Of a DNA stretch of 64,000 nt, positions 11,355-36,156 are shown piece after piece. Positions within the stretch are counted from its first letter, which is position 1. The number at the start of each line of letters is the position of its first letter. Source of the stretch: a virus; IMG/VR virus record IMGVR_UViG_3300006155_000004. One strand, 5' to 3'. The notes below the pieces were generated by a model. That model made no database searches and had not been told where the DNA came from. It was given only the letters and a program-made list of their open reading frames with translations. The position numbers were made by a program, and so were the translations under genes.

Positions 11355-11379
11355 AAATATACATAGGAGGATAAAGCAT

Positions 11380-15726: not shown

Positions 15727-16374
15727 ATGTTGGTAGAAATGAGGAAGCTCAACAAAAGAGAAATCAATGTTGTCACAAGCCTTGATGTGGCTGAAACATT
15801 TGAAAAGGAACATAAGAACGTATTGAGGGATATAAGAGAATTACCTTGTAGCGAAGAATTTCGACTGCTCAATTTTGTGCCGTCGGAATATCTAAATCAG
15901 CAGAACCACAAGCAGCCAATGTATTACATTACAAGAGACGGATTTACTCTTTTAGTCATGGGTTACACCGGCGAAAAGGCTATGAAATTTAAGGAGGCTT
16001 ACATAAGACAGTTCAATGCTATGGAGGCTACACTGCAAGGAAAGCTGATTGAGCGAGAAAAAGGAATCGTAGTCCGGCAAGCATTTACGAAAGCGTTAAA
16101 AGAAAGCGGAGAGAACGAAAGAACGCACGGACACGCTTATTCGCTTTACACGGACTTGATTTACAAGGCAGTTTTCGGGAAGAACGCCAAACAGCTAAGA
16201 GAGGAATATGGAATAGCAAAACAGGACAATCTAATAGATTGCTTTGCCCAGGAAGAACTCGCAAAGGTAAAATCTGTTGAAATGGTTGTCAGCGGTCTTG
16301 TAGATTGTGGTTGGGGATATGATGATGTGAAGGGTTTTATAACCAACAGCACAAGAAAGTTGATTGCAGCTTAA
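15727..16374 (+). CDS. Rha-family phage regulatory protein (paralogue C)
   Basis: VVTSLDVAETFEKEHKNVLRDIRE...ITRDGFTLLVMGYTGEKAMKFKEAYIRQFNAME; leader and first codons (MLVE) parallel 6515 gene. Confidence 0.8.
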   Translation: MLVEMRKLNKREINVVTSLDVAETFEKEHKNVLRDIRELPCSEEFRLLNFVPSEYLNQQNHKQPMYYITRDGFTLLVMGYTGEKAMKFKEAYIRQFNAMEATLQGKLIEREKGIVVRQAFTKALKESGENERTHGHAYSLYTDLIYKAVFGKNAKQLREEYGIAKQDNLIDCFAQEELAKVKSVEMVVSGLVDCGWGYDDVKGFITNSTRKLIAA

Positions 16375-16579: not shown

Positions 16580-16744
16580 TTATTTAGTTTTCTGCTCGTT
16601 TAATTCAGATAATTTGTCATAGACATTTTGCATAAATTTTGCCACGTCTTTTCTGTTTTGGTCATTTGCTGCATGTGGCCAGCTTTGCGGTTTTGCGACG
16701 GTAATGTCCTTGACATATTCGAGCAATACAGAATTATCAATCAC
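16580..16744 (-). CDS. hypothetical small protein (54 aa), minus strand
   Basis: GTG start behind AAAGGAGGTGATACC on minus strand; ends TAA at 16580. Confidence 0.45.
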   Translation of the reverse strand: MIDNSVLLEYVKDITVAKPQSWPHAANDQNRKDVAKFMQNVYDKLSELNEQKTK

Positions 16745-16841
16745 GGTATCACCTCCTTTGGGAGAATTATACCACAAACAACAGGTAAGCACCCAATCTA
16801 TGGGTGCTATTTTTATTATGCTTTGTAAAGGCGGTGAAGGC

Positions 16842-19800
16842 ATGGCAGAAATAGATTCCCTTGAGATTCAAATAACAGCGAGCAGCAGAGCGGCGGCAAC
16901 GGCAATAGATGCGCTCAACAGAAAGCTTGGGACGCTTGCAAACTCCCTTAATTTTGATGCGCCTGGTCTGGAAAAACTGGATAAAATCCACGGAGACAAC
17001 ATAAAAAACCTTGGAACAGGTCTAAACGCACTCGGAAAAGGACTGCAAAGCATACAGTCCATCCGAAGGATAGATTTCGGAAAAATTGCAACCGATGTGC
17101 GAAGGCTGTCAAACATCCAGTCCGGGAATCTCCAAACACTCGGAAACGCTATGCGCCCGCTTGCAGATGGAATCAATGCGCTGTCAAAAGCAAAGGTTGA
17201 CAATTCCAACCTTACCAATCTGATAAACAGCCTTACAAGACTGTCAAATGCGAACCTAAGCAACCTTAACGGGGCAAACTTCACGCAGCTTGGAACTTCC
17301 ATAAAGGATTTTGCAAATGCCGTATCGGGCGCAAACAAGGTGGAGCAATCCACAATCGCTATGACAAACGCGGTTGCAAAGCTGGCAGCAGCCGGAAAAA
17401 ACATAGGAAAAGTCACCGGAGCATTGCCGCACCTTGCAAACAGCCTGAAAGCCTTTATGAACACCATGCATGAAGCGCCGCAGGTAGCAAATGAGACAAT
17501 CACATTTGCACAGGCAATCGGGACACTGGCAAGTGCAGGGGACAAAACCAAGGCAACCGCAAGCAATTTAAAACAGCTTGGTACGGAACTGAAAAACTTT
17601 ATGCAGACCATGTCCGCGGCACCGAATGTCAGCGACAGTGTTATCAGAATGACAACCGCACTTTCTGGACTTGTTAATCAGGGCGGGAGGGTGACGCTTT
17701 CGTCAAACTCCCTAAGCAGCAGCTTTAGCCGGGTATCTGGAATGTCTGGAAGGCTCAGGACAAACTTTCGGAATCTGACAGGCTCCATGTCCGGTCTGAG
17801 CGGAGCGACCTCAAAAACGGCGTCCAGCCTTAAAGGATTTTTACGGCAGCTCATGTCAGCAACCGGTGTGTATTTCAGCATATACGGCGCAATCCGGGGA
17901 CTGAAATCTGCAATCGATATTTCGTCCGACCTGACAGAAGTACAGAACGTTGTGGACGTGGCGTTTGGAGATATGGCATACAAAGTCGAGGAATTTGCAA
18001 AGGTTTCCGTAAAAGATTTTGGAATGTCGGAACTTACCACAAAAGAAATAGCCGGACGGTTCCAGGCAATGTCAACCGCAATCGGTGTAAGTGCAGATAA
18101 AATCGGACAGGCAAACACGTTTTTAAGCGGGCAGACAAAAGGATATGTTGCGGTTTCCGATTCGATGGCAGACGTTTCTATTAACCTGACGAAGTTAGCC
18201 GCTGATATGGCATCGTTTTACAACGTCGAACAGACCGACGTAGCCAAAAGCCTTGAATCCATATTCACGGGAACCACGGCCCCGCTGCGAAAATATGGTC
18301 TTGACCTGACACAGGCAACTCTTTCCGAGTGGGCATTGAAACAGGGACTTGACGCTGATATAAGTTCCATGTCTCAGGCCGAAAAGACCATGCTGCGGTA
18401 TCAGTATGTCCTGTCAAATACAAAAGCAGCACAGGGCGACTTCGCGCGTACAGCAGACTCGTGGGCTAATCAAACACGTGTTCTGGCACAGCAGTTTGAA
18501 ATACTGGCTTCTGTAATCGGCGGCGTTTTTATTAACGCTTTTAAGCCGGTTGTCAAGACACTAAATGCCGTTATGGCAAAAGTAATATCATTTGCAAAAA
18601 CCGTAGCAGACGCACTTGGCACAATTTTCGGCTGGACATTTGAGGTAAATCCAGGCGGAATAACAAATGATTTTGGCGACATGTCATCTGGTATCGAAGA
18701 TGTTGCAGACAGTGCAGGAGATGCGGCAGATAAAGTAAAAGACACGACAGACGAAGTAAAAGACCTGAAAGCGAATTTGCAGGGAATTGATAAGCTACAT
18801 GTCATAAGCCTTGATAAAGACAAAGACAAAGGAAAGGACAAGGGAACCGGAAAAGACAAGGACAAGGGAGACGGAATTGGCGGAATAGGCGGCTTAGATA
18901 CAAACCTGTTTGAAACCAAGAGTGTATTGAAAAAATATAAAAGCAGCATTGACACACTGTACAAACTGGGAGAGTACATAGGAAAAACTCTGACAAAAGC
19001 ATTAAACAGCATAAACTGGGATAAAGTATACGCTGCGGCAGACAATTTCGGGATTGGTCTGGCGCAGTTTTTAAATGGGCTGATTTCGCCAGAACTGTTT
19101 GCTGCGGTTGGTCGGACGATAGCCGGGGCGTTGAATACCGCACTCCATGTGCTTGACAATTTCGGAGCAACTTTTGACTGGAAAAATCTTGGAGATTCGC
19201 TTTCTGCTGGACTGGTTGCGTTCTTGAAAGGCATTGACTGGGAAACCGCGCTGTCCGCTGCTGCAAACTGGGGAACCGGAATTGCGACGACTCTGAATAG
19301 TTTTATATCTCCAGAATCATTCGGGCTTGTCGGAGAATCAATAGCAAAGGCTTTAAACACAGCGGTGCAATTCGCGCTTAGTTTCGGACAAGAATTTGAC
19401 TGGACAAATTTTGGAGAATCTCTTGCTACGGGAGTAAACGAATTCTTTAGAAACTTTAATTTTGAAAATCTGGCAGAGGCAATTAACGTGTGGGCAAAAG
19501 GAATTCTTGACACCATGATAACATTTCTGGACAAAACAGAATGGTACATGATTGGAGAAAGAATTGGAACATTTCTTGCGGAATTAGACTTTGCAGAAAT
19601 AGGAGGGAAAATCGGGCAAGCAATATGGAAAGCTATAAACGCGGGGATAGAGCTGTTTAAGGGGATGTTTTCCAAAGCACCGATAGAAGCGGCAATAATA
19701 GCCGCTTTTGCAGCACTAAAATTAACGGGAGCAGGCTCGATTATAGCAGGAGGGATAGCAAAGGCGCTATCTTCCACGAAAGCAAAAATATCCACAGCAA

Positions 19801-22800
19801 TAACAAAAGTGTTAAAAACAGCACTGTTGAAACCTATATCAAAATTTTTTACGGCAACCCTGATTCCGTCTATTACGGGACTTTTTTCAACGGTCGGAAG
19901 TGCATTTGGACTTTCTGGAAGTGCGGCGGTAGCGGCAGGTGGAGGAGTCGTTGTTGCCGGAATCGTCACGGCTGTTGCGACGATAAAAGACCTCTGGGGC
20001 ACGTCCGAAATTTTCAGAAAATCTGTATTGGATGCCTTCGATAAAATAAAGAAAAGCGTTTCTGATGCTTTTGAAAAAGTATCGGGAGCGGTAAAACCTC
20101 TGATTGATGCATTTGGAGAACTTGGAAAAGCACTTTCAGACTTTTATCAGAAAGGCCCTTTAAAACCGATAGTTGAGCTGCTTGCAAGCCTTGCCGTAAC
20201 GCTGGGTGGTGCAGTAATATCAACAGCGATAGACGTTATATCTGATGCGTTTTCCGCCCTTGCAAACGTTCTGACGGGGGCTGTTGAAGTTATAACAGGC
20301 GTCTTGGAGGCACTTAACGGAATTATTCATCTTGATTTTGACATGGCAATAAGCGGAGCCGCAAAAGCCGCGAAAGGAATACTTGATGCGTTTTCTGGAA
20401 TTTTAGGAGGAATAATAAACGCCGGAGTTGATATTGTAAAAGGTCTGCTGAAAGGAATTTTAAGTGGATTTTCCAATATTGGCAGCTGGCTTAAAAAGAA
20501 TATATTTGACCCGTTTATTAATGCGTTCAAGAATATTTTCGGAATCCATTCTCCATCAACAGTAATGGCAGAACAAGGCAGATTTTTAATACAAGGCCTG
20601 CTAAATGGAATATCCGGCATGATTGGCAAAGTTACCAAGCTGTTTGCAGATATAAAAAACAGTATCGCAAGAGTATGGGGCGAAGCAAAAAAGAACACAA
20701 CCGAAGCGTGGAACACAATATCAAACAAAGTCAGCGAAACGTGGGGAAACATGAAGTCCTGGGCGTCGGAAAAGTTTTCTGCTATAAAAAATTCGGTTAC
20801 GGGCGCATGGGACAAGGCAAAAGAAAAAACCGTAAGCGCATGGACAACAATATCAAATAAGATAAGCGAAACCTGGAACAACATAAAGTCTTGGGCGTCG
20901 GAAAAGTTCAATGCGGCAAAGAAATCCATAAGCGATGCATGGGAAAGCGCGAAGTCCAAGACAACAAGCACGTGGAGCACGATTTCTTCAAAGTTGAGCA
21001 GTACATGGAACAACATAAAAACATGGGCATCTGATAAGTTTTCAAGTGCAAAAAATTCAATAGTAAATGCATGGAATACCGCAAAAACAAAGACACAGAG
21101 TACATGGGACACAATCAAAAACAAAATATCGAGCGTCTGGAAAAACATAAAGTCAACCATATCGGGGGCGCTGACCGGAGAAGGAGGCATAGCAGGAAAA
21201 CTGTCATCCGCATGGTCGAACATCAAAAGCACGGCATCAAAAATGTGGAAACAGATTGCTGACAGCATCTTAAGCCCGATTAAAAAAGCAATAGACGGTG
21301 TGAAAAATGGGATTAACTGGGTTCTGGAAAAGGTCGGGGCTAAAAAGAGCGTGATTAAAGGAAGCCCGAAATATGCTAAAGGCTCCAATGGAATCCCAGA
21401 AGACACGTTTGGCATAGTCAACGACCAGAAAGGCTCCACATACCGCGAACTAATCGTACCGCCGCACGGAAAGCCGTTCATCCCAAAAGGACGAAACGTC
21501 ATGCTTCCGCTTGAAAAAGGAACAAAAATCATGCCCGCAATGGAAACCAAGCGTTTTATTGGCGGGCTTCCTCATTTTGAGGGCGGAATAGGCGATTTTA
21601 TCGGCGGCGCATGGGAGAAAGTAAAAAACTTTACTGGACAGATATGGGATTATATTTCAGAGCCGAAAAAGATTGTCCAGATTGCCATAGATAAATTCAC
21701 GAGCATGACGGGCATTTTGGAACCTATGCTATCAATCGCAAAAGGGGCAGTAAGCACGATCGCGGACGGAGCGACCAGTTTTGTCAAGAAAATATTTGAC
21801 GAAGAACTAAAGGTTGACTACAAAGTCGGCGCAGGCGTGCAGCAATGGGCTGGACTTGCAGCAAAAGCCTTGCAGATAACAGGACAGTATTCAGCCGCCA
21901 ACCTCTCCTATCTTTTGCAGCAGATGCAACATGAGTCAAGTGGAAATCCGATGTCCATAAACCTATGGGATTCAAATGCAAAAAAGGGAACTCCATCCAA
22001 GGGATTGATGCAGGTGATTGACCCCACATTCCAGTCTTACGCAAAACCTCCATATAACAAGAACATTTATGATCCGTTATCGAACATTATTGCTTCTATA
22101 AGGTATTCGTTGGCAAAATACGGAAGTCTTTATAACGCATGGGCCAAAAGAGGATTTATAGGATATGAGTCCGGAATTGGAAAAATAACCATATCGGATA
22201 TCATACCGGGATACGCAAACGGCGGGTTCCCAGAATCCGGGCAACTATTTATGGCAAGGGAAAACGGATCGCCGGAAATGGTAGGAAAAATCGGGAGCCG
22301 GACGGTGGTGGCAAACAACGAACAGATTACGGACGCGGTGGCAAAGGCAATTGCGGAAAAGATGAATGAAACAACGGACGAATTTGGAAAGATCATGAAC
22401 CAACTTTTGAAAAAGATGGAAAAAATCTTTCTATCCGCGTCCGAACAAAAAGGTGTTGACCGAAAGTCTTTATACTTTGTGGCAGACAGACTTATTGCCA
22501 ACATCAAAGATTCCTTTTCTTCGATAACAAATGAGTTTTTAAAAACCGGAACAATTTCTGACAACGAAGTACAATCGTTACTAGAAAAAACCGCGCAAAT
22601 AATAGAAAAAGGCAGGCAAGACAACCAAGAAAACGCCGACGCGCTGAGTTTGATATACAAAAGCATATCATCAAATTCGGTGGATGCATTTAACGCTATG
22701 AATGAAGCTGCAAGCGCATATAGAAAATATGCAGAAAGCGCGAAAAAAGAAACAAAAAGAAAAGAAGAAATAGATATAGAAATAAATACAGACGTAAAAG

Positions 22801-23717
22801 AAGAAAGTGTTTACGATGCGGCAAAAAGCGTCATGGATGGAATGCGAGACGGAATGGATAAATATGTTTCAGAAATGGAACAATGGGTAAATTCTGTTAG
22901 AGAATCAACGCAAGAATGGTTTTCGATGGTTGGAGATGGAATTTATGTTTATGGGCAGGAGGCTTCTGACGGATATGGAGATGGGATATATGACGGATAT
23001 GAAGATGTGGTAAATTCGGCGGAATCAGTTGCAAGCGGAGCAGAAAGTGCGTTTTCTGGAACAGAAGAGGAGGTTCAAATAGATGGCGTGAATATTGTTT
23101 CTGGACTTCAAAGTGGAATGGAAGAAAGGTGGGGAGAGCTTTTAGAATGGATCGCTGAAAAAAAAGAAGAATTAACGCTAAGTCTTTCGGAATTAGAAGA
23201 AGCAATGATGCCGGTTGGCGAGGGGATTATCAACGGACTGGCGCATGGCATGGAATCGATGTGGTATTCCGTAGAAGAGTGGGCAAAGAAAATAGAAGAT
23301 ACATTTTCTTCTGCCAAAAGCACGGAAAAGAATATGGAATACTTGCAAAGTGTAGCAACAAAAATTGCAGATAGCGCAGAAATTACAGGAAAAGATAAAA
23401 CGGGATCTTTGGATAAACAAAAGTACAAAATAGCGGACCTTACACAAATTACAAAAAATAATAGCGTCGGGAAAGTCGTAGATCTTCGTGAGTACAACAA
23501 GAAAACAAATTATTCTGGAACAGACGTAAAAAACCAGAACGCAAGGGACATGTCTGTGAGCATGATTACAGCAATAAACCAGGCAATTGTGCCTGCGCTA
23601 CAAAAGATAGGAAATACGACCGTTGAATTAAAAGGGGATGCAAAAGGGTTGTTTGATGCGGTAGTAAAAGAAAACAGCAAATATAAAACGATAACCGGAG
23701 CATCCGCAATGCGGTAA
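16842..23717 (+). CDS. tail tape measure protein with internal lytic transglycosylase (SLT) domain
   Basis: 2291 aa from ATG 16842; helical A/L/N-rich N-part; DKDKGKDKGTGKDKDKGDGIGGIGG linker; five roughly 40-aa W-rich repeats (about 20.65-21.2 kb); QHESSGNP...GLMQV SLT motif at about 21.9 kb. Confidence 0.9.
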   Translation: MAEIDSLEIQITASSRAAATAIDALNRKLGTLANSLNFDAPGLEKLDKIHGDNIKNLGTGLNALGKGLQSIQSIRRIDFGKIATDVRRLSNIQSGNLQTLGNAMRPLADGINALSKAKVDNSNLTNLINSLTRLSNANLSNLNGANFTQLGTSIKDFANAVSGANKVEQSTIAMTNAVAKLAAAGKNIGKVTGALPHLANSLKAFMNTMHEAPQVANETITFAQAIGTLASAGDKTKATASNLKQLGTELKNFMQTMSAAPNVSDSVIRMTTALSGLVNQGGRVTLSSNSLSSSFSRVSGMSGRLRTNFRNLTGSMSGLSGATSKTASSLKGFLRQLMSATGVYFSIYGAIRGLKSAIDISSDLTEVQNVVDVAFGDMAYKVEEFAKVSVKDFGMSELTTKEIAGRFQAMSTAIGVSADKIGQANTFLSGQTKGYVAVSDSMADVSINLTKLAADMASFYNVEQTDVAKSLESIFTGTTAPLRKYGLDLTQATLSEWALKQGLDADISSMSQAEKTMLRYQYVLSNTKAAQGDFARTADSWANQTRVLAQQFEILASVIGGVFINAFKPVVKTLNAVMAKVISFAKTVADALGTIFGWTFEVNPGGITNDFGDMSSGIEDVADSAGDAADKVKDTTDEVKDLKANLQGIDKLHVISLDKDKDKGKDKGTGKDKDKGDGIGGIGGLDTNLFETKSVLKKYKSSIDTLYKLGEYIGKTLTKALNSINWDKVYAAADNFGIGLAQFLNGLISPELFAAVGRTIAGALNTALHVLDNFGATFDWKNLGDSLSAGLVAFLKGIDWETALSAAANWGTGIATTLNSFISPESFGLVGESIAKALNTAVQFALSFGQEFDWTNFGESLATGVNEFFRNFNFENLAEAINVWAKGILDTMITFLDKTEWYMIGERIGTFLAELDFAEIGGKIGQAIWKAINAGIELFKGMFSKAPIEAAIIAAFAALKLTGAGSIIAGGIAKALSSTKAKISTAITKVLKTALLKPISKFFTATLIPSITGLFSTVGSAFGLSGSAAVAAGGGVVVAGIVTAVATIKDLWGTSEIFRKSVLDAFDKIKKSVSDAFEKVSGAVKPLIDAFGELGKALSDFYQKGPLKPIVELLASLAVTLGGAVISTAIDVISDAFSALANVLTGAVEVITGVLEALNGIIHLDFDMAISGAAKAAKGILDAFSGILGGIINAGVDIVKGLLKGILSGFSNIGSWLKKNIFDPFINAFKNIFGIHSPSTVMAEQGRFLIQGLLNGISGMIGKVTKLFADIKNSIARVWGEAKKNTTEAWNTISNKVSETWGNMKSWASEKFSAIKNSVTGAWDKAKEKTVSAWTTISNKISETWNNIKSWASEKFNAAKKSISDAWESAKSKTTSTWSTISSKLSSTWNNIKTWASDKFSSAKNSIVNAWNTAKTKTQSTWDTIKNKISSVWKNIKSTISGALTGEGGIAGKLSSAWSNIKSTASKMWKQIADSILSPIKKAIDGVKNGINWVLEKVGAKKSVIKGSPKYAKGSNGIPEDTFGIVNDQKGSTYRELIVPPHGKPFIPKGRNVMLPLEKGTKIMPAMETKRFIGGLPHFEGGIGDFIGGAWEKVKNFTGQIWDYISEPKKIVQIAIDKFTSMTGILEPMLSIAKGAVSTIADGATSFVKKIFDEELKVDYKVGAGVQQWAGLAAKALQITGQYSAANLSYLLQQMQHESSGNPMSINLWDSNAKKGTPSKGLMQVIDPTFQSYAKPPYNKNIYDPLSNIIASIRYSLAKYGSLYNAWAKRGFIGYESGIGKITISDIIPGYANGGFPESGQLFMARENGSPEMVGKIGSRTVVANNEQITDAVAKAIAEKMNETTDEFGKIMNQLLKKMEKIFLSASEQKGVDRKSLYFVADRLIANIKDSFSSITNEFLKTGTISDNEVQSLLEKTAQIIEKGRQDNQENADALSLIYKSISSNSVDAFNAMNEAASAYRKYAESAKKETKRKEEIDIEINTDVKEESVYDAAKSVMDGMRDGMDKYVSEMEQWVNSVRESTQEWFSMVGDGIYVYGQEASDGYGDGIYDGYEDVVNSAESVASGAESAFSGTEEEVQIDGVNIVSGLQSGMEERWGELLEWIAEKKEELTLSLSELEEAMMPVGEGIINGLAHGMESMWYSVEEWAKKIEDTFSSAKSTEKNMEYLQSVATKIADSAEITGKDKTGSLDKQKYKIADLTQITKNNSVGKVVDLREYNKKTNYSGTDVKNQNARDMSVSMITAINQAIVPALQKIGNTTVELKGDAKGLFDAVVKENSKYKTITGASAMR

Positions 23718-26883: not shown

Positions 26884-26899
26884 ATAGGAGTTGGTTTTT

Positions 26900-28009
26900 A
26901 TGGACAAGGCTTACACAAGGATACATTGGGAAAATAGCCCAAGCACAAAAACGGCTCTTGGAGCAATGAACCTGAATCGAACGGACTATGCTATAGACGA
27001 GATTGACAACCGGGTTATGCGTCACGACAACGAAAAGGCGGACAAAACCGAAATCCTGAACCTTGTCAACGGCTGGACAATGGACGAACAGACCGGAATC
27101 ATAACGGTCACGAAAGTCAATGGGGAAAGATTGATATTCGACCTGAATATCGAGAAAATACCAGTCAACTTTGAACTGTCTCCAGAGGGAATCCTAACCA
27201 TGACAACCGCTGATGGAACACGGTTTACGGCAAATATCGGCGCGATGATTCCGATGCTTGAGTTTGAAAGCACCGATACGATTGCAGTTTCTGTAACGGG
27301 AGAGGGGGTCAACAAGACATATTCCTTTTTCGTAAAAGACGGGAGCATAACAGAGGATAAGCTGCAGCCGAACTTTCTTGCGGATGTTACTGTACAGGCG
27401 GAAAACGCGTCCGCAGCAGCAACGGCGGCGGCAGATTCGGCAAGGGCAGCAAAAGATTCTGAAACCAATGCGGCACGGTCGGCGGCAGATGCAGCAGCGT
27501 CTGCACTGGCGGCACAGGAGTCAAAGGTTGCGGCGGCAGAATCAGAAGCAGCAGCAAAGCGTTCCGAAGAAGCATCGGAAGTTTCACAACAGGCGGCAGC
27601 GGCGTCGGAAGTGGCGGCAAAGGAATCGGAAGAAGCCGCAAAACTGTCCGAAACCAATGCAGCAGAGTCCGAAACCAATGCGGCGGCATCCGAACGAACG
27701 GCACTGGAAAAAGCGGAAGAAGCGTCGGACAGCGCAGACCTGTCAAAGTCCTATGCGGTCGGAGGAACTGGAACGAGACCCGGGGAAGACACAGATAACT
27801 CGGAGTATTACAGCAATCAATCGAAAGAGTATTTAAATAAGGTAGAAACTGCTGGCGAAAACGCCCTTGAAACGATTAAAAACGCTTTAAAAGCAGCAAA
27901 ACCGGAATTTGTGACAAACGTACAGAACGGCCACCTTTATTACAAGGGCGGGCGTTTTTTCTTTCTGGTTGATGAAAACGGGCATTTGAGATGGAGGGTG
28001 ATGATTTGA
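26900..28009 (+). CDS. tail fibre/baseplate upper-type protein with alanine-rich heptad shaft
   Basis: N-terminus IHWENSPSTKTALGAMNLNRTDYAIDEIDNR; 110-aa A/E/S repeat (AAESEAAAKRSEEASEVSQQAAAASE...). Confidence 0.6.
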   Translation: MDKAYTRIHWENSPSTKTALGAMNLNRTDYAIDEIDNRVMRHDNEKADKTEILNLVNGWTMDEQTGIITVTKVNGERLIFDLNIEKIPVNFELSPEGILTMTTADGTRFTANIGAMIPMLEFESTDTIAVSVTGEGVNKTYSFFVKDGSITEDKLQPNFLADVTVQAENASAAATAAADSARAAKDSETNAARSAADAAASALAAQESKVAAAESEAAAKRSEEASEVSQQAAAASEVAAKESEEAAKLSETNAAESETNAAASERTALEKAEEASDSADLSKSYAVGGTGTRPGEDTDNSEYYSNQSKEYLNKVETAGENALETIKNALKAAKPEFVTNVQNGHLYYKGGRFFFLVDENGHLRWRVMI

Positions 28010-29541
28010 ACGAGGAAAAAATGGATGAGCTGCTTCGTCTGATGCGGGCCATTGTTCCTGACACGTCCGATATGAGTGACGCCGGAAAAGTTGGGTTTGT
28101 ATATAAATTTGATTATGACCCGGCAGCGCCTTATGAAAAGCTTGATGTAGTTAAATACGGAATGTCCTTATGGACGCCAAAAACGGACACGATCGGGAAC
28201 CCGCCGCCCGATCAGTCACAATACGGTCAAGAAGATGCGCAAGAGAATGATTTTTGGGTTTTGTTCCTACCTGGCGCCCTTGGAAGCGAATATGTTAAAA
28301 AGACCGATATATCCGCCCCTCCTACCGAAACCGAATCAGGAAAGCCCGGGGTAAATTATCCGGACGGCAAGACAATTACAATTGACGAAAACGGGATGCT
28401 TACGGGGGCGCCTACAGGCAGGTCGCTTACAAAAGAAGAAATGAACACACAGCTTTCAGATGGAACGTTGGAAGACGGGAGCGCAGTGTACCTTTCCGGT
28501 AATGAGCAGGACGGCGACCGCGGGAATATGGTGGGGCTTATCATAGACGGGCAGTTTGTCCCGTATGGTATGGTAGGACTGCGCGACGGGGTTCCGGTAT
28601 ACCTGTTCAACACCTATGAGGAATACGAAGCGGCAAAGCCTAACCTGGTAGACCCATGCGTGTTCATTACGCTTGACGACCTTGATACGGGCGGCTGGAC
28701 GTTTGATGATGCGCTTGATCCGGAGTCTGAGAATGCGGTGCAGAACAAGGCTTTGTATGCTTATATAAGTGGGATCATGACAATGGAAGATCCTATATCA
28801 TTTAATGGAGGCGCCGGATATCACAATTCGATTTTTCGAGGAAAATATCTTGGTGATACACTGACGCAAGAGCAGGTAGCAGAAATTGAAGCTGGAACAT
28901 TCAAGGATATGTTTGTTGGTGACTACTGGACAATCGGTGGGGTGAATTACCGCATTGCCCATCTTGATTACTGGCTGCGGTGCGGGGATGCAGAATGCAC
29001 GAAGCACCATGCCGTCATAGTTCCTGACACCTGCCTGTATAATGCACAGATGCATAACACTGCATCCGGGCAGTATGAGGGCGGAGCAGCCAACACAACA
29101 GAGGGCGGCTATATCGGTTCTGATATGTATAAAACGGGGCTTAACCAGGCAAAAACTATAATCAATAACGCTTTCGGCTCGGCGCATATATTGTCACACA
29201 GGGAACTGTTGGTAAATGCCGTCACAAATGGCAGGCCGAGCAACAATGTATGGTATGACAGCACCGTGGAATTAATGAATGAGCCTATGGTATACGGCAG
29301 CTATATTTTTACTCCGGCGCATGATGGCACGGTGATTTCATACCGTTACACCATTGACAAGTCACAGTTGGCGTTATTCGCATTGCGCCCGGATTTAATC
29401 TGTAACCGTGTGGGCTGGTGGTTGCGTGACGTTGTTTCGGGCGCTCATTTTGCCAATGTGTACTGGCACGGCCATGCGGACTGCTACTACGCTTCCAACG
29501 CTTTTGGCGTGCGCCCGGCTTTCGGGGTTTGCGGATCTTGA
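27991..29541 (+). CDS. tail fibre / receptor-binding protein
   Basis: 516 aa; SENAVQNKALY collar motif; C-terminus WWLRDVVSGAHF...AFGVRPAFGV (DUF6273-like, memory); start may be ATG 28021. Confidence 0.55.
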   Translation: MEGDDLNEEKMDELLRLMRAIVPDTSDMSDAGKVGFVYKFDYDPAAPYEKLDVVKYGMSLWTPKTDTIGNPPPDQSQYGQEDAQENDFWVLFLPGALGSEYVKKTDISAPPTETESGKPGVNYPDGKTITIDENGMLTGAPTGRSLTKEEMNTQLSDGTLEDGSAVYLSGNEQDGDRGNMVGLIIDGQFVPYGMVGLRDGVPVYLFNTYEEYEAAKPNLVDPCVFITLDDLDTGGWTFDDALDPESENAVQNKALYAYISGIMTMEDPISFNGGAGYHNSIFRGKYLGDTLTQEQVAEIEAGTFKDMFVGDYWTIGGVNYRIAHLDYWLRCGDAECTKHHAVIVPDTCLYNAQMHNTASGQYEGGAANTTEGGYIGSDMYKTGLNQAKTIINNAFGSAHILSHRELLVNAVTNGRPSNNVWYDSTVELMNEPMVYGSYIFTPAHDGTVISYRYTIDKSQLALFALRPDLICNRVGWWLRDVVSGAHFANVYWHGHADCYYASNAFGVRPAFGVCGS

Positions 29542-29630: not shown

Positions 29631-30137
29631 ATGAGCATTTCAATACTAGAAAATGGCACACGGCACAAAATCCAAACTTGGTCTTTGCCGGACGAAAAAA
29701 TAGATAAAAACAGCAAAAATGCTGTTTCGAATAATGCAGTAGCGAAAGCGCTAGAACAGATGAAAGACGGAGTCGCGGAACAGGCCGAGTCTTTGGATGC
29801 TAAAATTCGGGCCAATTCACATAATGTGTCTGAGATTAGCAAGCTTATACAAAAGTTTACGCGATATGATGGCAGGACGGATATGTATGTAGGCGACCTG
29901 GATGATTTAAGGGAAAACAGCATCTACAACTGCAATGAAAGCACGCTGCATGCACCAAAAAAGTTCACAAACTGGTTTTTTGTTGTTACTTTTGTCCACA
30001 CACCAAATAATGATTATGTTGCTCAGGTTGCGATACACATGAATGGCCCGGGCGGAAGCACGCCAATCGCAATCCGGAACTGTGGCAGCGGAGTTTGGGG
30101 AAGATGGCGTTATATAGCAGTGCAAGAGGAGGAGTAA
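29631..30137 (+). CDS. fibre-tip protein, tract-less paralogue (cassette 0), knob-like C-domain
   Basis: MSISILENGTRHKI leader-like N-terminus; NSKNAVSNNAVAKAL motif; C-domain GDLDDLRENSIYNC...VWGRWRYI parallels cassette 2 (DLNDYLSPGNYYC...WTAWKKI). Confidence 0.6.
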   Translation: MSISILENGTRHKIQTWSLPDEKIDKNSKNAVSNNAVAKALEQMKDGVAEQAESLDAKIRANSHNVSEISKLIQKFTRYDGRTDMYVGDLDDLRENSIYNCNESTLHAPKKFTNWFFVVTFVHTPNNDYVAQVAIHMNGPGGSTPIAIRNCGSGVWGRWRYIAVQEEE

Positions 30138-30139: not shown

Positions 30140-30650
30140 ATGGGAATATACATGCAAAATAACAATGTAGTTCATCGGCTGGACGGAAATGGCGGGGGGG
30201 GGCATTCTTGAAAGAATAGAAAAAATTGAAGAAAAAATAAAGCAAATGAATTTTGAAATGTCCGAAAAACTTCCTATTAATATGGTAACAAATAGAACAG
30301 ATATAACGGAAGCTGGGTATGCAGCAGACGCACGGCAGTTGAATCCGGCGCTGCCAGAAACACTTTCCGCAAAATTGCAAGATATTTTAAAATACCCACG
30401 GATCCGGAAGATTGTCGAAATTGCAGCCGCTTCCGGAAAGCCATTAGATTCAGGAAGTTATATATCAGTAAATGTAGATTTAACGCCATATGGATTTCTA
30501 AAGAAGCCATATGCGTTCTTAAAGCATACAACGTGGCTTGCGGTTCATTCCATCATCGTAACAAATGTGAATGCACATGTTACGCTTACAAATCCATACA
30601 ATGATGCACATGACGATTCGGCATCGTTTATATTGATAGAATTTTTATGA
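30140..30650 (+). CDS. fibre-tip cassette 1, start and body in different frames across G9 (in frame at G8/G11)
   Basis: SD GAGGAGGAG, ATG 30140 MGIYMQNNNVVHRLDGNGGGG then stop 30209; body frame ...GGGILERIEKIEEK...DITEAGYAADARQLN... to 30650. Confidence 0.7.
30194..30202 (+). repeat. G9 homopolymer, cassette 1
   Basis: ggcGGGGGGGGGcat. Confidence 0.9.
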
Positions 30651-30662
30651 AAGGGGATAACA

Positions 30663-31209
30663 ATGGGGTTATACATACACCAAAACAACACCGCAACCCC
30701 GATCGGGGGGGGGCGTAAGCAAAATAATATTAGACCGAATAACGGCATTAGAATCAGGCCTTGAAACGGTAAACCATGCATTGTCTTTAAAACTTGACTT
30801 GGACAAGGTAACACAAAGCGATTCCATAACAGAACGTGGCTATGCGGTTGATGCAAGAGAATTAAACGCTTCGCTTAGCGGAACGGTTGCGAATAAAACG
30901 GAAAGAATTAATGAATCTCTTTCCGGATGCAGCAGGCTTTTTGGGGGCCAGATGATAAACAGAGGATCGGATTTAAATGATTATTTAAGTCCTGGAAATT
31001 ATTATTGCAGTTCGAATGCGATCGCAGGAACGTTGAAAAACTCTCCTATAGTCGATGCATTTACAATGAAAGTGGAATTTGCTACAGGTGTGGCATATCC
31101 ATGTCAAACCTTGCGGGATTTTATTATCGGAACATTGTATTACAGGGTTTTTAATCCTTTTAAAAACCAGTGGACGGCATGGAAAAAAATAGATCTGGTT
31201 CCGATTTAG
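30663..31209 (+). CDS. fibre-tip cassette 2 (knob-like C-domain), out of frame across G9 (in frame at G8/G11)
   Basis: ATG 30663 MGLYIHQNNTATPIGGG then stop 30762; +1 frame GVSKIILDRITALESGLETVNHALSLKLDLDKVTQSDSITERGYAVDARELN... to 31209. Confidence 0.7.
30705..30713 (+). repeat. G9 homopolymer, cassette 2
   Basis: atcGGGGGGGGGcgt. Confidence 0.9.
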
Positions 31210-31227
31210 AACAGAAAGAGAGGAAAA

Positions 31228-31790
31228 ATGGGATTATATGTAAAAAATAACGGATCAGAAAAGAAAATCGGGGGGGGGCAGGACAGGCCGTACTAAACCG
31301 CATTGCGGCGCTGGAATCGGGGCTTGAAAGCGTAAGGCGGTCCCTGGCAGGCAAGCTGGATTTAAATAATGTGACACAGGGAACATCTATAACGGAGGCC
31401 GGATGGGCCGCGGATGCGCGGCAGATGAACTCTGCTTATCCAGGCAGCATCGCAGAAAAGGTGGAAGGGAATGCCGGCAGGATATCGGCACTTTCATTCC
31501 GGTTTGCATTAAAGGCTGAAGTGGCAGGGAATGGGGAGACAACGGATATAACACTGCCGTCATACGGCGTGTATATCCTGATTTCGCATCATGGCGGCGT
31601 ATGGACGACACTGGAGGGGATGGCATATATTTCCTGCAGCCCGTACCAGGATGCATATGTGGCTGAAAAAATATTTGGGCGTTATGACTTTGACGCTATG
31701 GAAATGTCTATAGACACAGGGACAAGGGTTTTATCGGTTAAAAACCATTGCGCATCCGGATCCAATATTTATTTATATCAAATACTATAG
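31228..31790 (+). CDS. fibre-tip cassette 3, out of frame across G9 (in frame at G10/G7)
   Basis: ATG 31228 MGLYVKNNGSEKKIGGG then stop 31294; -1 frame GGAGQAVLNRIAALESGLESVRRSLAGKLDLNNVTQGTSITEAGWAADARQMN... to 31790. Confidence 0.7.
31270..31278 (+). repeat. G9 homopolymer, cassette 3
   Basis: atcGGGGGGGGGcag. Confidence 0.9.
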
Positions 31791-31808
31791 ACGGAAAGGG
31801 GCGGCAAT

Positions 31809-31966
31809 ATGAATTTGTATATACAAAAAAACGGAAAGGCGGGCGAAATTGGGGGGGGGTAATAAAAACCCTTATAGACCGTATGGCGGCACTTGAGTCA
31901 GGTCTTGCAGGCCTTAAAACGGAACTGCAGGGCAGGCTGCTGGTTGTTGTATATAATTTTGTTTAG
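31809..31966 (+). pseudogene. fibre-tip cassette 4, truncated remnant that still carries leader and G9
   Basis: ATG 31809 MNLYIQKNGKAGEIGGG then TAA 31860; -1 frame GGVIKTLIDRMAALESGLAGLKTELQGRL then ends 31966, no C-domain. Confidence 0.6.
31851..31859 (+). repeat. G9 homopolymer, cassette 4
   Basis: attGGGGGGGGGtaa. Confidence 0.9.
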
Positions 31967-31982: not shown

Positions 31983-32369
31983 ATGAAAGAATTTGTAACA
32001 GCTAACGAAAAGATTTATGAATGCAGCAATGTAACAACTGGCATAGATTCCATTACCATGACGATGGAAAACCAGAATGCAAACGACATGATCGCGGAGT
32101 TTGATGGAGTAACCGAACTTACCGTATCATTCGAAAAAAAGAAAGAAGAATGGGAAGAGGATCTGGGACTGGTTTTAGAAGACCCGCACGGGATATATAA
32201 AAACTTAAAATTGGAATCAGTAACCACGAACGTGAACGACGGATCGGTAAGCGTGACAATGCATATAAAAAGCGATATCGAAATGCGGCTGGACGCTTTG
32301 GAAACGGGGCAGGAATTGCAGGACGGCGCCATTATGGAACTGGCACAGAATGTGGGAGGTGGGTTATAA
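31983..32369 (+). CDS. XkdW-like tail-module protein (by position)
   Basis: 128 aa from ATG 31983; precedes XkdX-like mini gene and endolysin. Confidence 0.4.
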   Translation: MKEFVTANEKIYECSNVTTGIDSITMTMENQNANDMIAEFDGVTELTVSFEKKKEEWEEDLGLVLEDPHGIYKNLKLESVTTNVNDGSVSVTMHIKSDIEMRLDALETGQELQDGAIMELAQNVGGGL

Positions 32370-33285: not shown

Positions 33286-33290
33286 AAAGA

Positions 33291-33326
33291 ATCCGCCGTA
33301 TAAAAATATGTTTTTGTGCGGCGGAT
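33291..33326. terminator. hairpin after endolysin (T-run only on minus strand)
   Basis: ATCCGCCG-N20-CGGCGGAT; large loop, weak as + strand terminator. Confidence 0.35.
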
Positions 33327-33792
33327 AATCGTAAAAATGTATCATTCTAACTCTTCTATCTTTTTTAAAATTAATTCTTTTTCTTTTTCGCTTAATCTTT
33401 CGTTGGTTCCATAGATTGACAAAGAAACGGAATAACCACCAAACAGCATAAGCCAAAAACAAAAGAAAGAGCTGCGGGAATCAACAAGAAAATCCCTAAA
33501 TGAAACAAAAAAAGGACAGAAAAAGACGAAAGTCCAGAACGATCACGTTATGAGAAATGAGATTTTTCCGCCACAACTTCTAGCTTATTAGACTTTTCTT
33601 CCGATTCTTTACATCCTTTTCTTTTGGTTCTGCTATTTTATCGTTCATAAATAAATATGCCCCATCCAAATGTATATTGCGATCATACTAAATGGTGTTA
33701 TTAAAATACAGAATTAAATAAAAAAATATTTATTTTGCTTACCAAATACGGAAAAAGTGATAGTAGGCTATATTAAATTGGAGAAACGCAAA

Positions 33793-33954
33793 ATGAAATC
33801 TGTTGTTTTTGAAAAGAAACTAAAAGATCTAAGGGAAAACGCAGGATTAACGCAAAGACAATTGGCTGTTCGAATTGAAGTTTCAAAGTCTACGGTGGCT
33901 TTGTATGAAATACAGGAAAGAGGGCTTTCATCAGATTCTTTGATTGGCCGATGA
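33793..33954 (+). pseudogene. XRE-family HTH gene, apparently truncated/frameshifted
   Basis: LKDLRENAGLTQRQLAVRIEVSKSTVALYEIQERG then early stop; plausible continuation DDGIDIIERLIETMRDKNRKIKGI in +1 frame to 34023. Confidence 0.5.
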
Positions 33955-34082
33955 TGGCATAGATATTATAGAACGTCTTATAGAAACAATGAGAGACAAA
34001 AACAGAAAGATAAAAGGAATTTGAACGACAACAAGAAATTGTCGGTTTTTGTCGTTAATTAATTATTATTTCACAAAAACTA

Positions 34083-34111
34083 TTGCAAAAAACGAATATA
34101 TGTTCTATAAT
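34083..34111 (+). promoter_or_regulatory. consensus-like sigma-A promoter (TTGCAA-17-TATAAT)
   Basis: -35 34083-34088, -10 34106-34111. Confidence 0.65.
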
Positions 34112-34159
34112 ATTATCTGTCTTACATAGTACAAATACAAAATATGTTCGAGGTGTGTC

Positions 34160-34330
34160 ATGGATAAAACGCAAAATAAAGAAAAAGAGGTCGAGTTTTT
34201 TGTTTCTCCAGAAGAATACAAAAGAGAAGCGATTAAAATAATCAAAAAAATAAAAAGTCCCGAAATATTAAAATTGATATACTATTTTTCCAAAAGTGGC
34301 TATAAAGAGGAAAATGCGGGGAGAAGATAG
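34160..34330 (+). CDS. hypothetical small protein (56 aa)
   Basis: ATG behind GAGGTG; TAG 34328-34330. Confidence 0.4.
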   Translation: MDKTQNKEKEVEFFVSPEEYKREAIKIIKKIKSPEILKLIYYFSKSGYKEENAGRR

Positions 34331-34343
34331 CTCCCCGAAATCC

Positions 34344-34721
34344 CTACAATATGAACTTTTCAAAGAAATCACAAATCAATTCTTTTTCGTCGGCCGGGAG
34401 CTTGCTATATTCAACAACTATTTTAGCAAATCTCTTATCTGCCAATGCGATTTTCAGTACATTGTCCATAAATTCTGCATCTGCACCAGAACCATTCTTT
34501 TCATCAGTTAAATCAGACTTTCCTATACGAAAATAATCAGCCAATTTTTGAATTTTTCCAAGGCTCGGAAACGACTTTCCGCTGCACCACATATTTAATG
34601 TAGGCGGATTTTCTCCGATAGCCTCAGCCACTTCTTTTTGTGTCTTCTGATTTAATGATATATATCTGTTTAAATTCTTAGCAAACACTTTCTTTTGTTC
34701 GTCATTTTCTATTTTAAACAC
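34344..34721 (-). CDS. cI-like XRE-family repressor without peptidase domain
   Basis: 125 aa; HTH KNLNRYISLNQKTQKEVAEAIGENPPTLNMWCSGKSFPSLGKIQKLADYF; divergent from cro-like gene; no S24 domain. Confidence 0.8.
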   Translation of the reverse strand: MFKIENDEQKKVFAKNLNRYISLNQKTQKEVAEAIGENPPTLNMWCSGKSFPSLGKIQKLADYFRIGKSDLTDEKNGSGADAEFMDNVLKIALADKRFAKIVVEYSKLPADEKELICDFFEKFIL

Positions 34722-34738
34722 CCCCTTTTTCGATTTTT

Positions 34739-34767
34739 ATTATATAGCATAATTCAAAAAAATTCAA
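34739..34767 (-). promoter_or_regulatory. repressor promoter (TTGAAT-17-TATAAT on minus strand)
   Basis: -10 = complement of 34739-34744, -35 = complement of 34762-34767. Confidence 0.6.
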
Positions 34768-34771
34768 TATG

Positions 34772-34792
34772 AAATTCAATATTTTTGAATTT
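34772..34792. promoter_or_regulatory. operator O1, 7-7-7 palindrome AAATTCA-N7-TGAATTT
   Basis: aaattcaatatttttgaattt between the divergent promoters. Confidence 0.7.
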
Positions 34793-34796
34793 TCTA

Positions 34797-34825
34797 TTGA
34801 CAATCAGAAAAAATTCAATTAAAAT
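34797..34825 (+). promoter_or_regulatory. early rightward promoter (TTGACA-17-TAAAAT)
   Basis: -35 34797-34802, -10 34820-34825. Confidence 0.65.
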
Positions 34826-34831
34826 GAATTT
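34811..34831. promoter_or_regulatory. operator O2, AAATTCA-N7-TGAATTT
   Basis: aaattcaattaaaatgaattt overlapping spacer and -10 of rightward promoter. Confidence 0.7.
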
Positions 34832-34856
34832 AGAAATTAGGAAAGGGGTGGTGTAA

Positions 34857-35072
34857 ATGCCGAGAATTTCTTTAAAAGCCGCGAGGGTGAATGCTAACAT
34901 GGAGCAGAGGGAATGGGCAGAAAACATAGGAGTATCAGTGGCTACGGTGATTAATTGGGAGAAGGGAAATACAGAACCAACCTTGTCTCAGTTAAGGAAA
35001 ATAAGTGAGTTGTCCGGGATTCCTATGGACTTTATTTTTGTGCCTGAAAAGTTCAATTTAATTGAATTTTAG
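34857..35072 (+). CDS. Cro-like XRE HTH protein, possible antitoxin for the adjacent MazF
   Basis: 71 aa; MEQREWAENIGVSVATVINWEKGNTEPTLSQLRKISELSGIPMDFIF; first gene of rightward operon; 9 nt before toxin gene. Confidence 0.75.
   Translation: MPRISLKAARVNANMEQREWAENIGVSVATVINWEKGNTEPTLSQLRKISELSGIPMDFIFVPEKFNLIEF
35049..35069. promoter_or_regulatory. operator-like site O3 (AAGTTCA-N7-TGAATTT) inside the 3' end of the cro-like gene
   Basis: aagttcaatttaattgaattt, one mismatch to O1/O2 half-sites; ends 13 nt before mazF ATG. Confidence 0.55.
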
Positions 35073-35081
35073 GGAGGGAAA

Positions 35082-35393
35082 ATGTCTGATATGAAACGTG
35101 GACAAGTTTACTATGCAGAACTAAGACCGGTTATCGGAAGCGAGCAAGGAGGAGTCAGACCGTGTTTGGTTATCCAGAATGACACAGGGAACTTACATTC
35201 CACGACCGTCATGATAGCGGCCATGACAACGAAGAGAAAGGCAAATATACCGACACATGTTGCTGTATCGTCAGAAGATTACTGTCTTGACATCAACACA
35301 ACAATTCTTCTTGAACAGATACGAACGATAGACAAAAGTAGGATATCAAGTTTTGTTAGCAGATTGAACGACTGTACCATGAAAAAAGGTTGA
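35082..35393 (+). CDS. mazF: MazF/PemK-family endoribonuclease toxin
   Basis: KRGQVYYAELRPVIGSEQGGVRPCLVIQNDTGNLHSTTVMIAAMTTKRKANIPTHV...TILLEQIRTIDKSRI matches MazF/EndoA signature. Confidence 0.85.
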   Translation: MSDMKRGQVYYAELRPVIGSEQGGVRPCLVIQNDTGNLHSTTVMIAAMTTKRKANIPTHVAVSSEDYCLDINTTILLEQIRTIDKSRISSFVSRLNDCTMKKG

Positions 35394-35448
35394 CGAAGCG
35401 TTAAATATCGGCCTTGCATTAAATAAGGAAGAAAGAGAAGCGGAAAAC

Positions 35449-36156
35449 TTGGGAGAGATAATTCACGTTGGAAACAGAGACATTTCCGTTAAAGAATACA
35501 ACGGACAAAGAGTGGTGACGTTCAAAGATATTGATGACGTTCACAACAGACCGGACGGAACGGCAAACAAAAGGTTCCTTGACAACAAGAAGCGGTTTGT
35601 AGAGGGGGAAGATTTCTTTAAGATAAGCAATTCCGAAATTCGGAAAAGCCGCATAATTCCTATATCTGACAATGATTACATGGACAAAATACTTGTAACA
35701 GAACAGGGATATCTGATGCTTGTCAAGTCATTTACAGATGATTTGGCGTGGGAAGTCCAGAGGAAACTTGTAAATGATTATTTCGGAGCGAAGAAGCTAT
35801 CTCCGGTCGAAATGATGCGGATTCAGCTTGGAATGATTGATGAACTTGGAGATAGAGTTACTGATCTAGAAAATACATACACAATCGACCACGGGCAACA
35901 GAGGGTTTTGGAAAACACGGTAAACAAAACTGTTATATCGGTTTTGGGCGGAAAAGAATCAAACGCCTACAAAGAAATAGGAAGAAAGGTATTTGCAGAG
36001 CGCAACAGGGATTTGAAGAACTATTTTAAGGTCAATTCCAGAGATGACGTTCCAAAGCTGCATTATGAAGATGCAATCAAGTATGCGGAGGATTGGAAAC
36101 CTTGCATAAACACTGCGATGCTTATTTCGAGCTGCAATGCTCAGATGAATTTATAG
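35449..36156 (+). CDS. ORF6N-domain antirepressor-like protein
   Basis: ISVKEYNGQRVVTFKDIDDVHNRPDGTANKRFLDNKKRFVEGEDFFKI...VTEQGYLMLVKSFTDDLAWEVQRKLV; TTG start. Confidence 0.65.
   Translation: MGEIIHVGNRDISVKEYNGQRVVTFKDIDDVHNRPDGTANKRFLDNKKRFVEGEDFFKISNSEIRKSRIIPISDNDYMDKILVTEQGYLMLVKSFTDDLAWEVQRKLVNDYFGAKKLSPVEMMRIQLGMIDELGDRVTDLENTYTIDHGQQRVLENTVNKTVISVLGGKESNAYKEIGRKVFAERNRDLKNYFKVNSRDDVPKLHYEDAIKYAEDWKPCINTAMLISSCNAQMNL

Follow-up and report, generated by a model that had tools for sequence, protein, structure and literature searches.

Receptor-binding proteins (RBPs) that vary through polyG tracts are already known in phages. As summarized from Sorensen et al. (2021, Cell Rep 35:109214) in PMC8713573, Campylobacter phages of the Fletchervirus group carry up to four RBPs, two of which are phase-variable by polyG. 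The surface genes of Campylobacter jejuni change by replication slippage at tracts of G8-G11 with a modal length of nine, G8 tending to gain and G11 to lose a G (Bayliss et al. 2012, PMC3401435). A Gram-positive of the gut, Bifidobacterium breve, relies for pilus expression on replication slippage at a G tract inside the gene (Penno et al. 2022, PMC9187656). Homopolymer slippage also underlies contingency loci of phages T2 and T4, where reversible frameshifts serve bet-hedging (Gomez, Barrick and Waters 2025 preprint, PMC12633550), while the Gin and Cin inversion systems of Mu and P1 and the diversity-generating retroelements (DGRs) of phages such as Bordetella phage BPP-1 reach the same end, alternative specificities in one population (PMC12823448). 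For gut phages, a 2025 Nature paper still mentions polyG tracts as no more than a possible determinant of host range, with reference to the Campylobacter work. Here we describe a locus at the end of the tail module in a 64,000-nucleotide stretch of viral DNA (IMG/VR record IMGVR_UViG_3300006155_000004, the whole of which we call the window), in which four tandem genes, termed cassettes, are each interrupted by a run of nine G (G9). The locus is probably a phage contingency locus, made up of a default tip gene (29631-30137), three complete alternative receptor-binding cassettes and one stub.

The closest parallel is with Fletchervirus, with which the locus shares intragenic polyG in phage RBP genes, several RBPs and, going by the account in PMC8713573, mixed populations that face variable receptors. 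It differs in that tandem arrays of two to nine small (150-215 amino acids) paralogous cassettes share a docking-type leader, the tract stands at one fixed junction and no cassette is in frame at the modal G9. Moreover, Fletchervirus phages are lytic and their host itself uses polyG, whereas the phages considered here come from gut metagenomes, have Gram-positive-type features and encode a repressor that suggests a temperate lifestyle. Homology between the two systems was not found: tblastn of a cassette homologue (P0007) against 50,697 phage records (INPHARED) returned one weak match, to a human-faecal contig, and no Campylobacter phage. The tracts of C. jejuni and B. breve lie in chromosomal cell genes rather than in a phage structural module with up to nine paralogues, and those of T2 and T4 are mostly A runs scattered in normally-on genes (agt, rIIA) rather than parts of what appears to be a dedicated multi-cassette receptor-binding switchboard, off by default. 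Gin, Cin and DGRs work by site-specific inversion and mutagenic retrohoming, mechanisms different from that proposed here; between 24 and 33 kb of the window there is no invertase or reverse transcriptase, and inverted repeats around the cassettes are weak and scattered. A first-pass annotation of the window, made by a model from the letters alone, had known of no multi-cassette version of polyG-variable RBPs. That claim has to be narrowed, since phase variation among multiple RBPs has the Fletchervirus precedent summarized in PMC8713573; what sets the present system apart is the combination of paralogous tandem arrays (up to nine cassettes), a shared leader, a fixed linker position and an off state common to all cassettes at the modal length.

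Scanning the window for homopolymers, we found exactly five runs of at least six G, each of them G9 and all on the plus strand (15454-15462, 30194-30202, 30705-30713, 31270-31278 and 31851-31859), whereas runs of 6-8 G are absent and C runs do not exceed five. Under a first-order Markov model one would expect 0.22 runs of at least nine G per 64 kb, and about 13 runs of exactly 6-8 G in the window. In the 35 other genes of the window GGG accounts for 19% of glycine codons, and yet none of 52 Gly-Gly pairs is spelt GGG GGG. The excess of G9, the missing runs of 6-8 and the absence of GGG GGG therefore indicate that G runs are avoided elsewhere in the window. Four of the five G9 runs follow homologous leaders and define the array:

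30140-30650, plus strand: cassette 1; leader open reading frame (ORF) 30140-30211 (23 codons), body in the +1 frame ending at 30650, 169 amino acids at G8 or G11
30194-30202, plus strand: G9 tract of cassette 1, also G9 in L043-L046, four assemblies of the window's lineage
30663-31209, plus strand: cassette 2; leader ORF 30663-30764, body in the +1 frame ending at 31209, 181 amino acids at G8 or G11
30705-30713, plus strand: G9 tract of cassette 2
31228-31790, plus strand: cassette 3; leader ORF 31228-31296, body in the -1 frame ending at 31790, 187 amino acids at G10 or G7
31270-31278, plus strand: G9 tract of cassette 3, which doubles as the breakpoint of a mosaic homology
31809-31966, plus strand: cassette 4, a remnant; leader, G9 and a 34-codon stem body fused to the last 8 head residues, 52 amino acids at G10
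31851-31859, plus strand: G9 tract of cassette 4

Each leader begins at an ATG with its own Shine-Dalgarno sequence (ATGs at 30140, 30663, 31228 and 31809) and reads MGIYMQNN.., MGLYIHQNN.., MGLYVKNNG.. and MNLYIQKNG.. in cassettes 1 to 4; the shared start before the tract is 14-18 codons long, and the G9 run falls at codons 15-19 in all four. At G9 the leader frame ends 2, 16, 5 and 0 codons past the glycine run, while the long body frame lies at +1 in cassettes 1 and 2 and at -1 in the other two. A full-length product thus requires G8 or G11 in the first pair and G10 or G7 in the second, giving proteins of 169, 181, 187 and 52 amino acids (at G8, G8, G10 and G10) against peptides of 17-33 at G9. 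Thus two hallmarks of contingency loci, a repeat within the coding region and a frame that toggles between full-length and truncated products with run length, are present in all four cassettes. The leader-GGG-stem junctions of the in-frame forms read ...DGNGGGGILER, ...PIGGGVSK and ...KIGGGAGQAVLNR.

Much of what the first-pass annotation said of these genes holds: the four G9 runs behind homologous leaders with their own Shine-Dalgarno sequences, the stops 0-16 codons past the tract, the single further G9 at 15454 with no other long G or C run, and an abundance of tracts beyond chance. It had also assigned all four genes a body with its own C-terminal domain and a conserved coiled coil, L(D/N)RI(T/A)ALESGLExV. 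The former applies to cassettes 1 to 3 and fails for cassette 4, which lacks collar and head, so that the window has only three complete cassettes; the latter fails for cassette 1, whose stem ILERIEKIEEKIKQ departs from the L(D/N)RIxALESGLE motif. In cassette 4 the stem (..ELQGRL) joins directly to the final eight residues of a head of the type found in the close relative L001 (..QGRLLIVGYNFV), homology to L001 picks up again at 31927, and the database protein P0027 is the intact form of the same stem with collar and head. On this alignment cassette 4 is a 52-codon deletion remnant; the missing part seems to have been lost by internal deletion between two microhomologies that code for QGRL, in the stem and at the C-terminal end of the head. 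Cassette 1 has a peculiarity of its own, in that at G9 its body possesses an in-frame ATG 5 nt before the tract (MAGGGILER...; 30189-30650). A leaderless form could be translated from it in the off state, and databases hold a 153-amino-acid protein of this kind (P0002).

We then asked how widely this design occurs. A profile of the four window cassettes matched only 12 protein clusters among 5.8 billion, an exhaustive hidden Markov model search returned 139 cluster representatives among 1.84 billion, and a search of IMG/VR with a single protein gave no match. In some database proteins the leader is in frame (P0006, MEAYIQQNGAREPIGGGSQELLERV...; P0007, P0024, P0026, P0106 and P0114), P0026 being the in-frame version of the seventh cassette of locus L007. 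Others begin at or just before the glycine run (MGGGTSQ...) or bear an extension in an alternative frame, as expected of gene callers faced with out-of-frame cassettes. Throughout, the leader is followed by polyG, then by a coiled-coil stem, the collar VTEAGYAADARQLN and a head that varies, and such cassettes stand in tandem arrays of two to nine in at least nine metagenomic loci besides the window:

L001-L006: 3 cassettes, close relatives of the window phage
L007 and copies: 9 cassettes, tyrosine integrase adjacent
L013: 4 cassettes, behind a P2-type baseplate
L015: 3 cassettes
L030: 2 cassettes
L031: 5 cassettes
L041: 7 cassettes
L042: 1 cassette
L047: 3 cassettes, outside the 38 classified below

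We classified 38 cassettes from nine loci (the window, L001, L007, L013, L015, L030, L031, L041 and L042). All of them, and the three of L047, have a tract of 7-11 G at the junction of leader and stem, even where the cassettes share less than 50% protein identity. G9 is by far the commonest state (26 of 38, always out of frame, including the L001 orthologue of cassette 1), followed by G8 (five in frame, and one out of frame that belongs to the 7/10 class), G10 (three, out of frame) and G11 (two, in frame); one tract, G6TG5, is interrupted and out of frame. Assembled DNA thus holds in-frame alleles of seven of the 38 cassettes, namely G8, G11 and G11 in L013 and one G8 each in L015, L031, L041 and L042. 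The in-frame length class is 8 or 11 in 32 cassettes and 7 or 10 in six, never 9 or 12. The run is invariably followed by C or T, and G8 together with that base encodes Gly-Gly-Gly; extra triplets therefore merely add one more linker glycine. In L013 two neighbouring cassettes (10043 and 10720) have identical flanks around the tract and differ in its length, G8 against G11, both in frame, a pair which suggests that the length drifts in steps of three under selection for the frame. The first-pass annotation had proposed to search related phages for the leader and tract, and had held that homologues lacking a homopolymer would speak against a switch; the design was found in the loci above, and the homologous cassettes there always carry the tract. 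Matches in IMG/VR and JGI (Joint Genome Institute) data to the collar only (L024-L028, L032-L040) were set aside, as these are long fibre proteins from phages of 31-47% GC that have no polyG and share the module, not the switch.

Evidence that the tracts change in length comes from contigs of the same element assembled from different sequencing runs. These are 99.96-100% identical over 2.7-11.3 kb and differ by six indels, all single-G changes in polyG tracts, compared with one substitution. In L007 the fourth cassette reads G9 in seven contigs and G8 in two; the same counts apply to the fifth, whose two G8 contigs are complete. In both the G8 allele restores the frame, whereupon the gene caller reports proteins of 183 and 155 amino acids. 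Hypermutability of the tract relative to its flanks, a further hallmark of contingency loci, is therefore present in relatives and was not seen in the window's own lineage. Contig ends also gather at the tracts: of about 32 ends, at least 10 lie in a tract or no more than 30 nt away, where about one would be expected (tracts and margins make up 2-4% of the sequence). An end of L046, from the window lineage, likewise lies 3 nt past the first tract, and in both SRR23619914 and SRR23619899 one contig ends inside a tract at which another begins. Such paired stopping and restarting is suggestive of two run lengths coexisting within a sample, given the behaviour of de Bruijn graphs, with Illumina errors at G9 as the alternative.

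The cassette bodies behave as live genes under purifying selection, judging from ratios of non-synonymous to synonymous substitution (dN/dS). Comparison of an in-frame cassette of L013 with its out-of-frame (G9) orthologue in L015 gave dS 0.87 and dN 0.14, a ratio of 0.16 over 195 gap-free codons. Ratios for stems and for the body of cassette 1 were 0.23-0.31 (0.31 for that body against L001), and about 0.75, on few changes, for the head of cassette 2 and one recent paralogous stem pair. An AlphaFold model of the in-frame homologue P0007, built on 30 sequences, had a mean pLDDT (predicted local distance difference test) score of 83 and showed, in order, an N-terminal beta-hairpin formed by the leader, a long helix, the collar and a beta-sandwich head (pLDDT 91-97). 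Neither the model nor its head had a significant fold neighbour in the PDB; in BFVD the head had matches at E 5e-6 to 7e-6, to uncharacterised Siphoviridae proteins and to a 'baseplate component' (6.6e-6 for the latter). A model of the body of cassette 2 from four sequences was unusable (pLDDT 43). That cassette matched phrog_3971 through its head (1.8e-8) and, weakly, the tail-fibre family phrog_6578 (0.0037). The 'knob-like' domain of the first-pass annotation refers to this protein, and its one support is a match, below threshold, with the knob of the R2 pyocin fibre (6CL6, E 0.08). The collar motif is also found in fibre-like proteins of 300-450 amino acids encoded, without polyG, by low-GC phages in IMG/VR. 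Position in the tail module, the BFVD match and the shared collar motif support identification of the cassettes as tail-tip or receptor-binding proteins. The leader would dock the protein to the baseplate, and the heads presumably bind receptors, with host range changing accordingly. In lactococcal siphophage TP901-1, BppL is a small trimeric RBP of about 160-190 amino acids with an N-terminal docking segment, a coiled-coil stem, a neck and a C-terminal head. The likeness of the cassettes to it, in size and order of parts, is architectural only, and no sequence or fold match between them and BppL-type RBPs was obtained.

We therefore favour the reading of the locus as a contingency locus, which the first-pass annotation had put forward and which the relatives' tract lengths, in-frame alleles, contig comparisons, contig ends and purifying selection all support. 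Replication slippage (slipped-strand mispairing) would alter the coding polyG linker by plus or minus one G. At the modal G9 every cassette would be off and yield only a peptide of 17-33 residues, and at G8 or G11 (cassettes 1 and 2) or at G10 or G7 (cassette 3) the full protein would be made. As in-frame lengths lie one step from the mode, cassettes would be off by default and rarely on. Each genome copy would thereby have a random, heritable, reversible and independently switched subset of tips on top of the default tip, and the mixed phage population would hedge against variation in host receptors. A mutational bias of the kind documented in C. jejuni would, by analogy, explain the dominance of G9 in both frame classes. 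In this particular phage slippage would presumably run at a useful rate.

Several observations weigh against this interpretation. The members of the window lineage, L043-L046, which come from three JGI samples and one Logan run, show 100% identity and G9 at all four tracts, and these four assemblies of the lineage contain no in-frame allele of the window's own cassettes. The prevalence of G9, never in frame, among the classified cassettes is what a fixed slippage site acting at the RNA level would also predict. Illumina indel errors at G9 could cause some of the graph breaks and perhaps some of the consensus differences, and the samples SRR236198xx-SRR236199xx may be related, and so not fully independent. 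Finally, neither the cassette profile nor the tail-tip protein found a relative when scanned against GTDB representative genomes, blastn of the locus against the 50,697 phage records gave no match, and the cassette searches yielded no relative among cultured phages.

The first two of these points would also be accommodated if G9 were a fixed recoding site, on which RNA polymerase stutters (plus or minus one G in the mRNA) or the ribosome slips by plus or minus one on GGG GGG GGG. Every cassette would then give a small constant fraction of full-length protein, each burst would contain a low dose of all tips, and diversity would be phenotypic, not heritable. Such a site would account for G9 being out of frame every time and in both frame classes, as well as for its invariance in the four lineage assemblies. 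Moreover, tRNA-Gly re-pairs perfectly on G9 in either direction and one process would serve +1 and -1 cassettes alike, and for A and T runs of at least nine bases transcriptional slippage is established (PMC1088944). We nonetheless judge recoding an unlikely explanation of the locus. In-frame DNA alleles are common (the seven of 38 and the between-sample G8 variants), so DNA length does change and does set the frame, and the mode at G9 is equally well explained by the documented polyG mutational bias (PMC3401435). Nor do the features of a programmed -1 or +1 ribosomal frameshift come together here: the run is slippery, but DNA length varies and the 80 nt downstream hold no conserved or unusually stable fold that could act as a stimulatory structure (z scores -2.6 to +1.3, most about 0; -2.5 kcal/mol for cassette 1). 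Recoding may add to switching at the DNA level rather than replace it.

A different role for the leader and polyG would be that of a recombination module, a crossover point for swapping heads and stems, of which the frameshifts are a by-product. The homology with L007 makes the case for it. Window positions 30838-31280 match the fourth and fifth cassettes of L007 (10136-10578) at 95.5%, ending at the end of the run, and positions 31270-31417 match its eighth cassette (12149-12296), starting at the run. Cassette 3 is accordingly a mosaic, the leader of the fifth L007 cassette and the body of the eighth joined exactly at the tract, and the collar motif (window 30838) marks a further boundary. 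The head of cassette 2 is 95% identical to that of the fourth L007 cassette, and the nine L007 cassettes are preceded, at about 0.7 kb, by a tyrosine integrase and a tRNA-3'-end-like sequence. However, no DNA motif or inverted repeat is common to the cassettes besides the Shine-Dalgarno sequence, the leader codons and the G run, no recombinase is found near the window array and most other arrays, and ordinary homologous recombination also gives breakpoints at short shared sequences. The need for a homopolymer, and its length variation between otherwise identical contigs, would be left unexplained. We consider recombination quite improbable as the main function. An integron-like arrangement likewise finds little in the data, as an integrase occurs at L007 only and no conserved attC-like structure separates the cassettes.

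The L007 element, with which the window cassettes share these 95%-identical segments, is unusual in other ways. Its nine tandem cassettes (6427-13227; also in L008, L016 and L017) are all out of frame, and the interrupted G6TG5 tract would lock one of them off. The array starts about 0.7 kb past the integrase, and the sequence between them, GGTTCGAATCCGTTCCTATCCA, resembles the 3' end of a tRNA; a full tRNA was looked for there and only this 3'-end-like fragment is present. Tail and lysis genes are absent from its surroundings, and the genes upstream match no family.

That the cassettes are decaying pseudogenes, or that their G9 is miscalled for true in-frame lengths, would suit the out-of-frame state of all four window cassettes and the remnant nature of cassette 4, and is very improbable, because the bodies keep open frames of 148-169 codons with no other lesions and dN/dS of 0.16-0.31, the tract persists between cassettes less than 50% identical in protein, G9 is reproduced in the four lineage assemblies and across JGI, Logan and ENA assemblies, and errors would have to shorten two tracts and lengthen two to arrive at one value.

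The array closes the tail module, with tape-measure, tail-tip and fibre genes upstream and an endolysin downstream. Its neighbours are:

16704-23717: tape-measure protein, 2337 amino acids, SLT domain, upstream of the array
upstream of the array: DUF6711 protein
upstream of the array: tail-tip protein, 817 amino acids, phrog_18190
26891-28009 and 27991-29541: two fibre-like proteins, upstream of the array
29631-30137, plus strand: fibre-tip-like gene, 168 amino acids, leader-like N-terminus MSISILENGTRHKI without polyG, directly upstream of cassette 1
31983-32369, plus strand: partner gene, 128 amino acids (MKEFVTANEKIYEC...), downstream of the array

The product of 29631-30137 is likely a constitutive, default receptor-binding tip; in P0054 the head of this protein is joined to a cassette-type stem and collar. 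Downstream, the 128-amino-acid product matches no Pfam or PHROG family. Its homologues occur in L001, L013 (11952-12383), L015 (2541-2942), L031 (4076-4429) and L041 (2807-3154), and the family (MKEFVTANxxIFEC..., 115-143 amino acids) follows or interrupts arrays in six loci, standing inside the array in L041, a distribution which makes it a candidate fibre chaperone or adaptor. It is followed by a 44-amino-acid ORF (at 32369), for which an XkdX-like identity was considered and found no Pfam support, and then by an Amidase_2 endolysin. Beyond the endolysin lie a CI-type repressor (34344-34721, minus strand), a Cro-like gene and a PemK/MazF toxin (35082-35393); an ORF6N/ORF6C antirepressor-type gene is also found beyond the lysis module (33286-36156 region). 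Because a repressor is present, a temperate lifestyle is suggested. No integrase was seen near it (window 33286-36156), and the contigs with the window phage are 47-111 kb long, a possible sign of a plasmid-like prophage lifestyle. The description as a temperate siphovirus of Firmicutes is hence plausible, as is a host among gut Clostridia: the closest cultured relative of the tail-tip protein is that of Roseburia phage Jekyll, at 28% identity, and its other matches are human-faecal phage contigs. Scanning the array for promoters and terminators gave nothing above background. Elsewhere in the window, a DDE transposase gene (46024-47505, minus strand) within the mostly plus-strand early and replication region suggests an insertion sequence element.

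PolyG tracts are also found outside cassettes. The fifth G9 of the window is placed as follows:

15454-15462, plus strand: non-cassette G9, with its first G closing the stop codon (TAG) of an ORF for a small membrane protein (...GIFYTLIYFALQN, then stop)

The run lies about 36 nt upstream of a small ORF (MKWRKEQ...), with no promoter or terminator match at the tract. Its neighbours are antirepressor-type accessory genes, P22_AR_N (14390-15037) and Rha (15727-16374), and the tape measure lies downstream. A role as a tail-chaperone frameshift site was rejected, the run being intergenic and set among antirepressor-type genes. Since L030 and L041 have true cassettes at the equivalent position, between tail-chaperone-like genes and the tape measure, the tract could be a cassette remnant or a regulatory switch. 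In the close relative L001 two more tracts vary between samples (11440-11449 and 12076-12084; 9295-9305 and 9932-9939 in L003). The first is G10 (in frame) or G11 (out of frame) within a 51-amino-acid gene beside the repressor. The second (G9 or G8) separates a GAGGA Shine-Dalgarno sequence from a GTG start, and the gene behind it is the first downstream of a TTGACA-17-TATAAT promoter facing the repressor; this tract could provide a polyG input into early-gene expression.

A bolder extension of the contingency-locus reading would take polyG as a logic that runs through the genome. G9 would be a selected, default-off set point, given that in none of the loci is a cassette in frame at the mutational mode, and the arrays randomly sampled libraries of tips, restocked by recombination exactly at the tract from stand-alone depots such as L007 with its integrase and att-like tRNA fragment; the same switch would gate non-structural genes, for example at the early-gene ribosome-binding site of L001. 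The tract would therefore be switch, protein linker and crossover point at once. We offer this extension tentatively and think it rather unlikely to hold as a whole.

If the locus works as proposed, one phage genotype would show several specificities, each at low frequency. This would extend polyG phase variation of RBPs beyond the lytic Campylobacter phages, to a group unrelated to them whose hosts are probably Clostridia and which is apparently temperate, and would offer a clean natural setting in which to test whether mutation bias or selection sets the modal tract length. Efforts to predict and engineer the host range of gut phages are held back chiefly by host recognition. Switching of this kind would affect the inference of host range from consensus genomes, in which gene callers miss or truncate such genes, and would bear on how the coexistence of gut phages with their hosts is explained and on the design of multi-specific phages.

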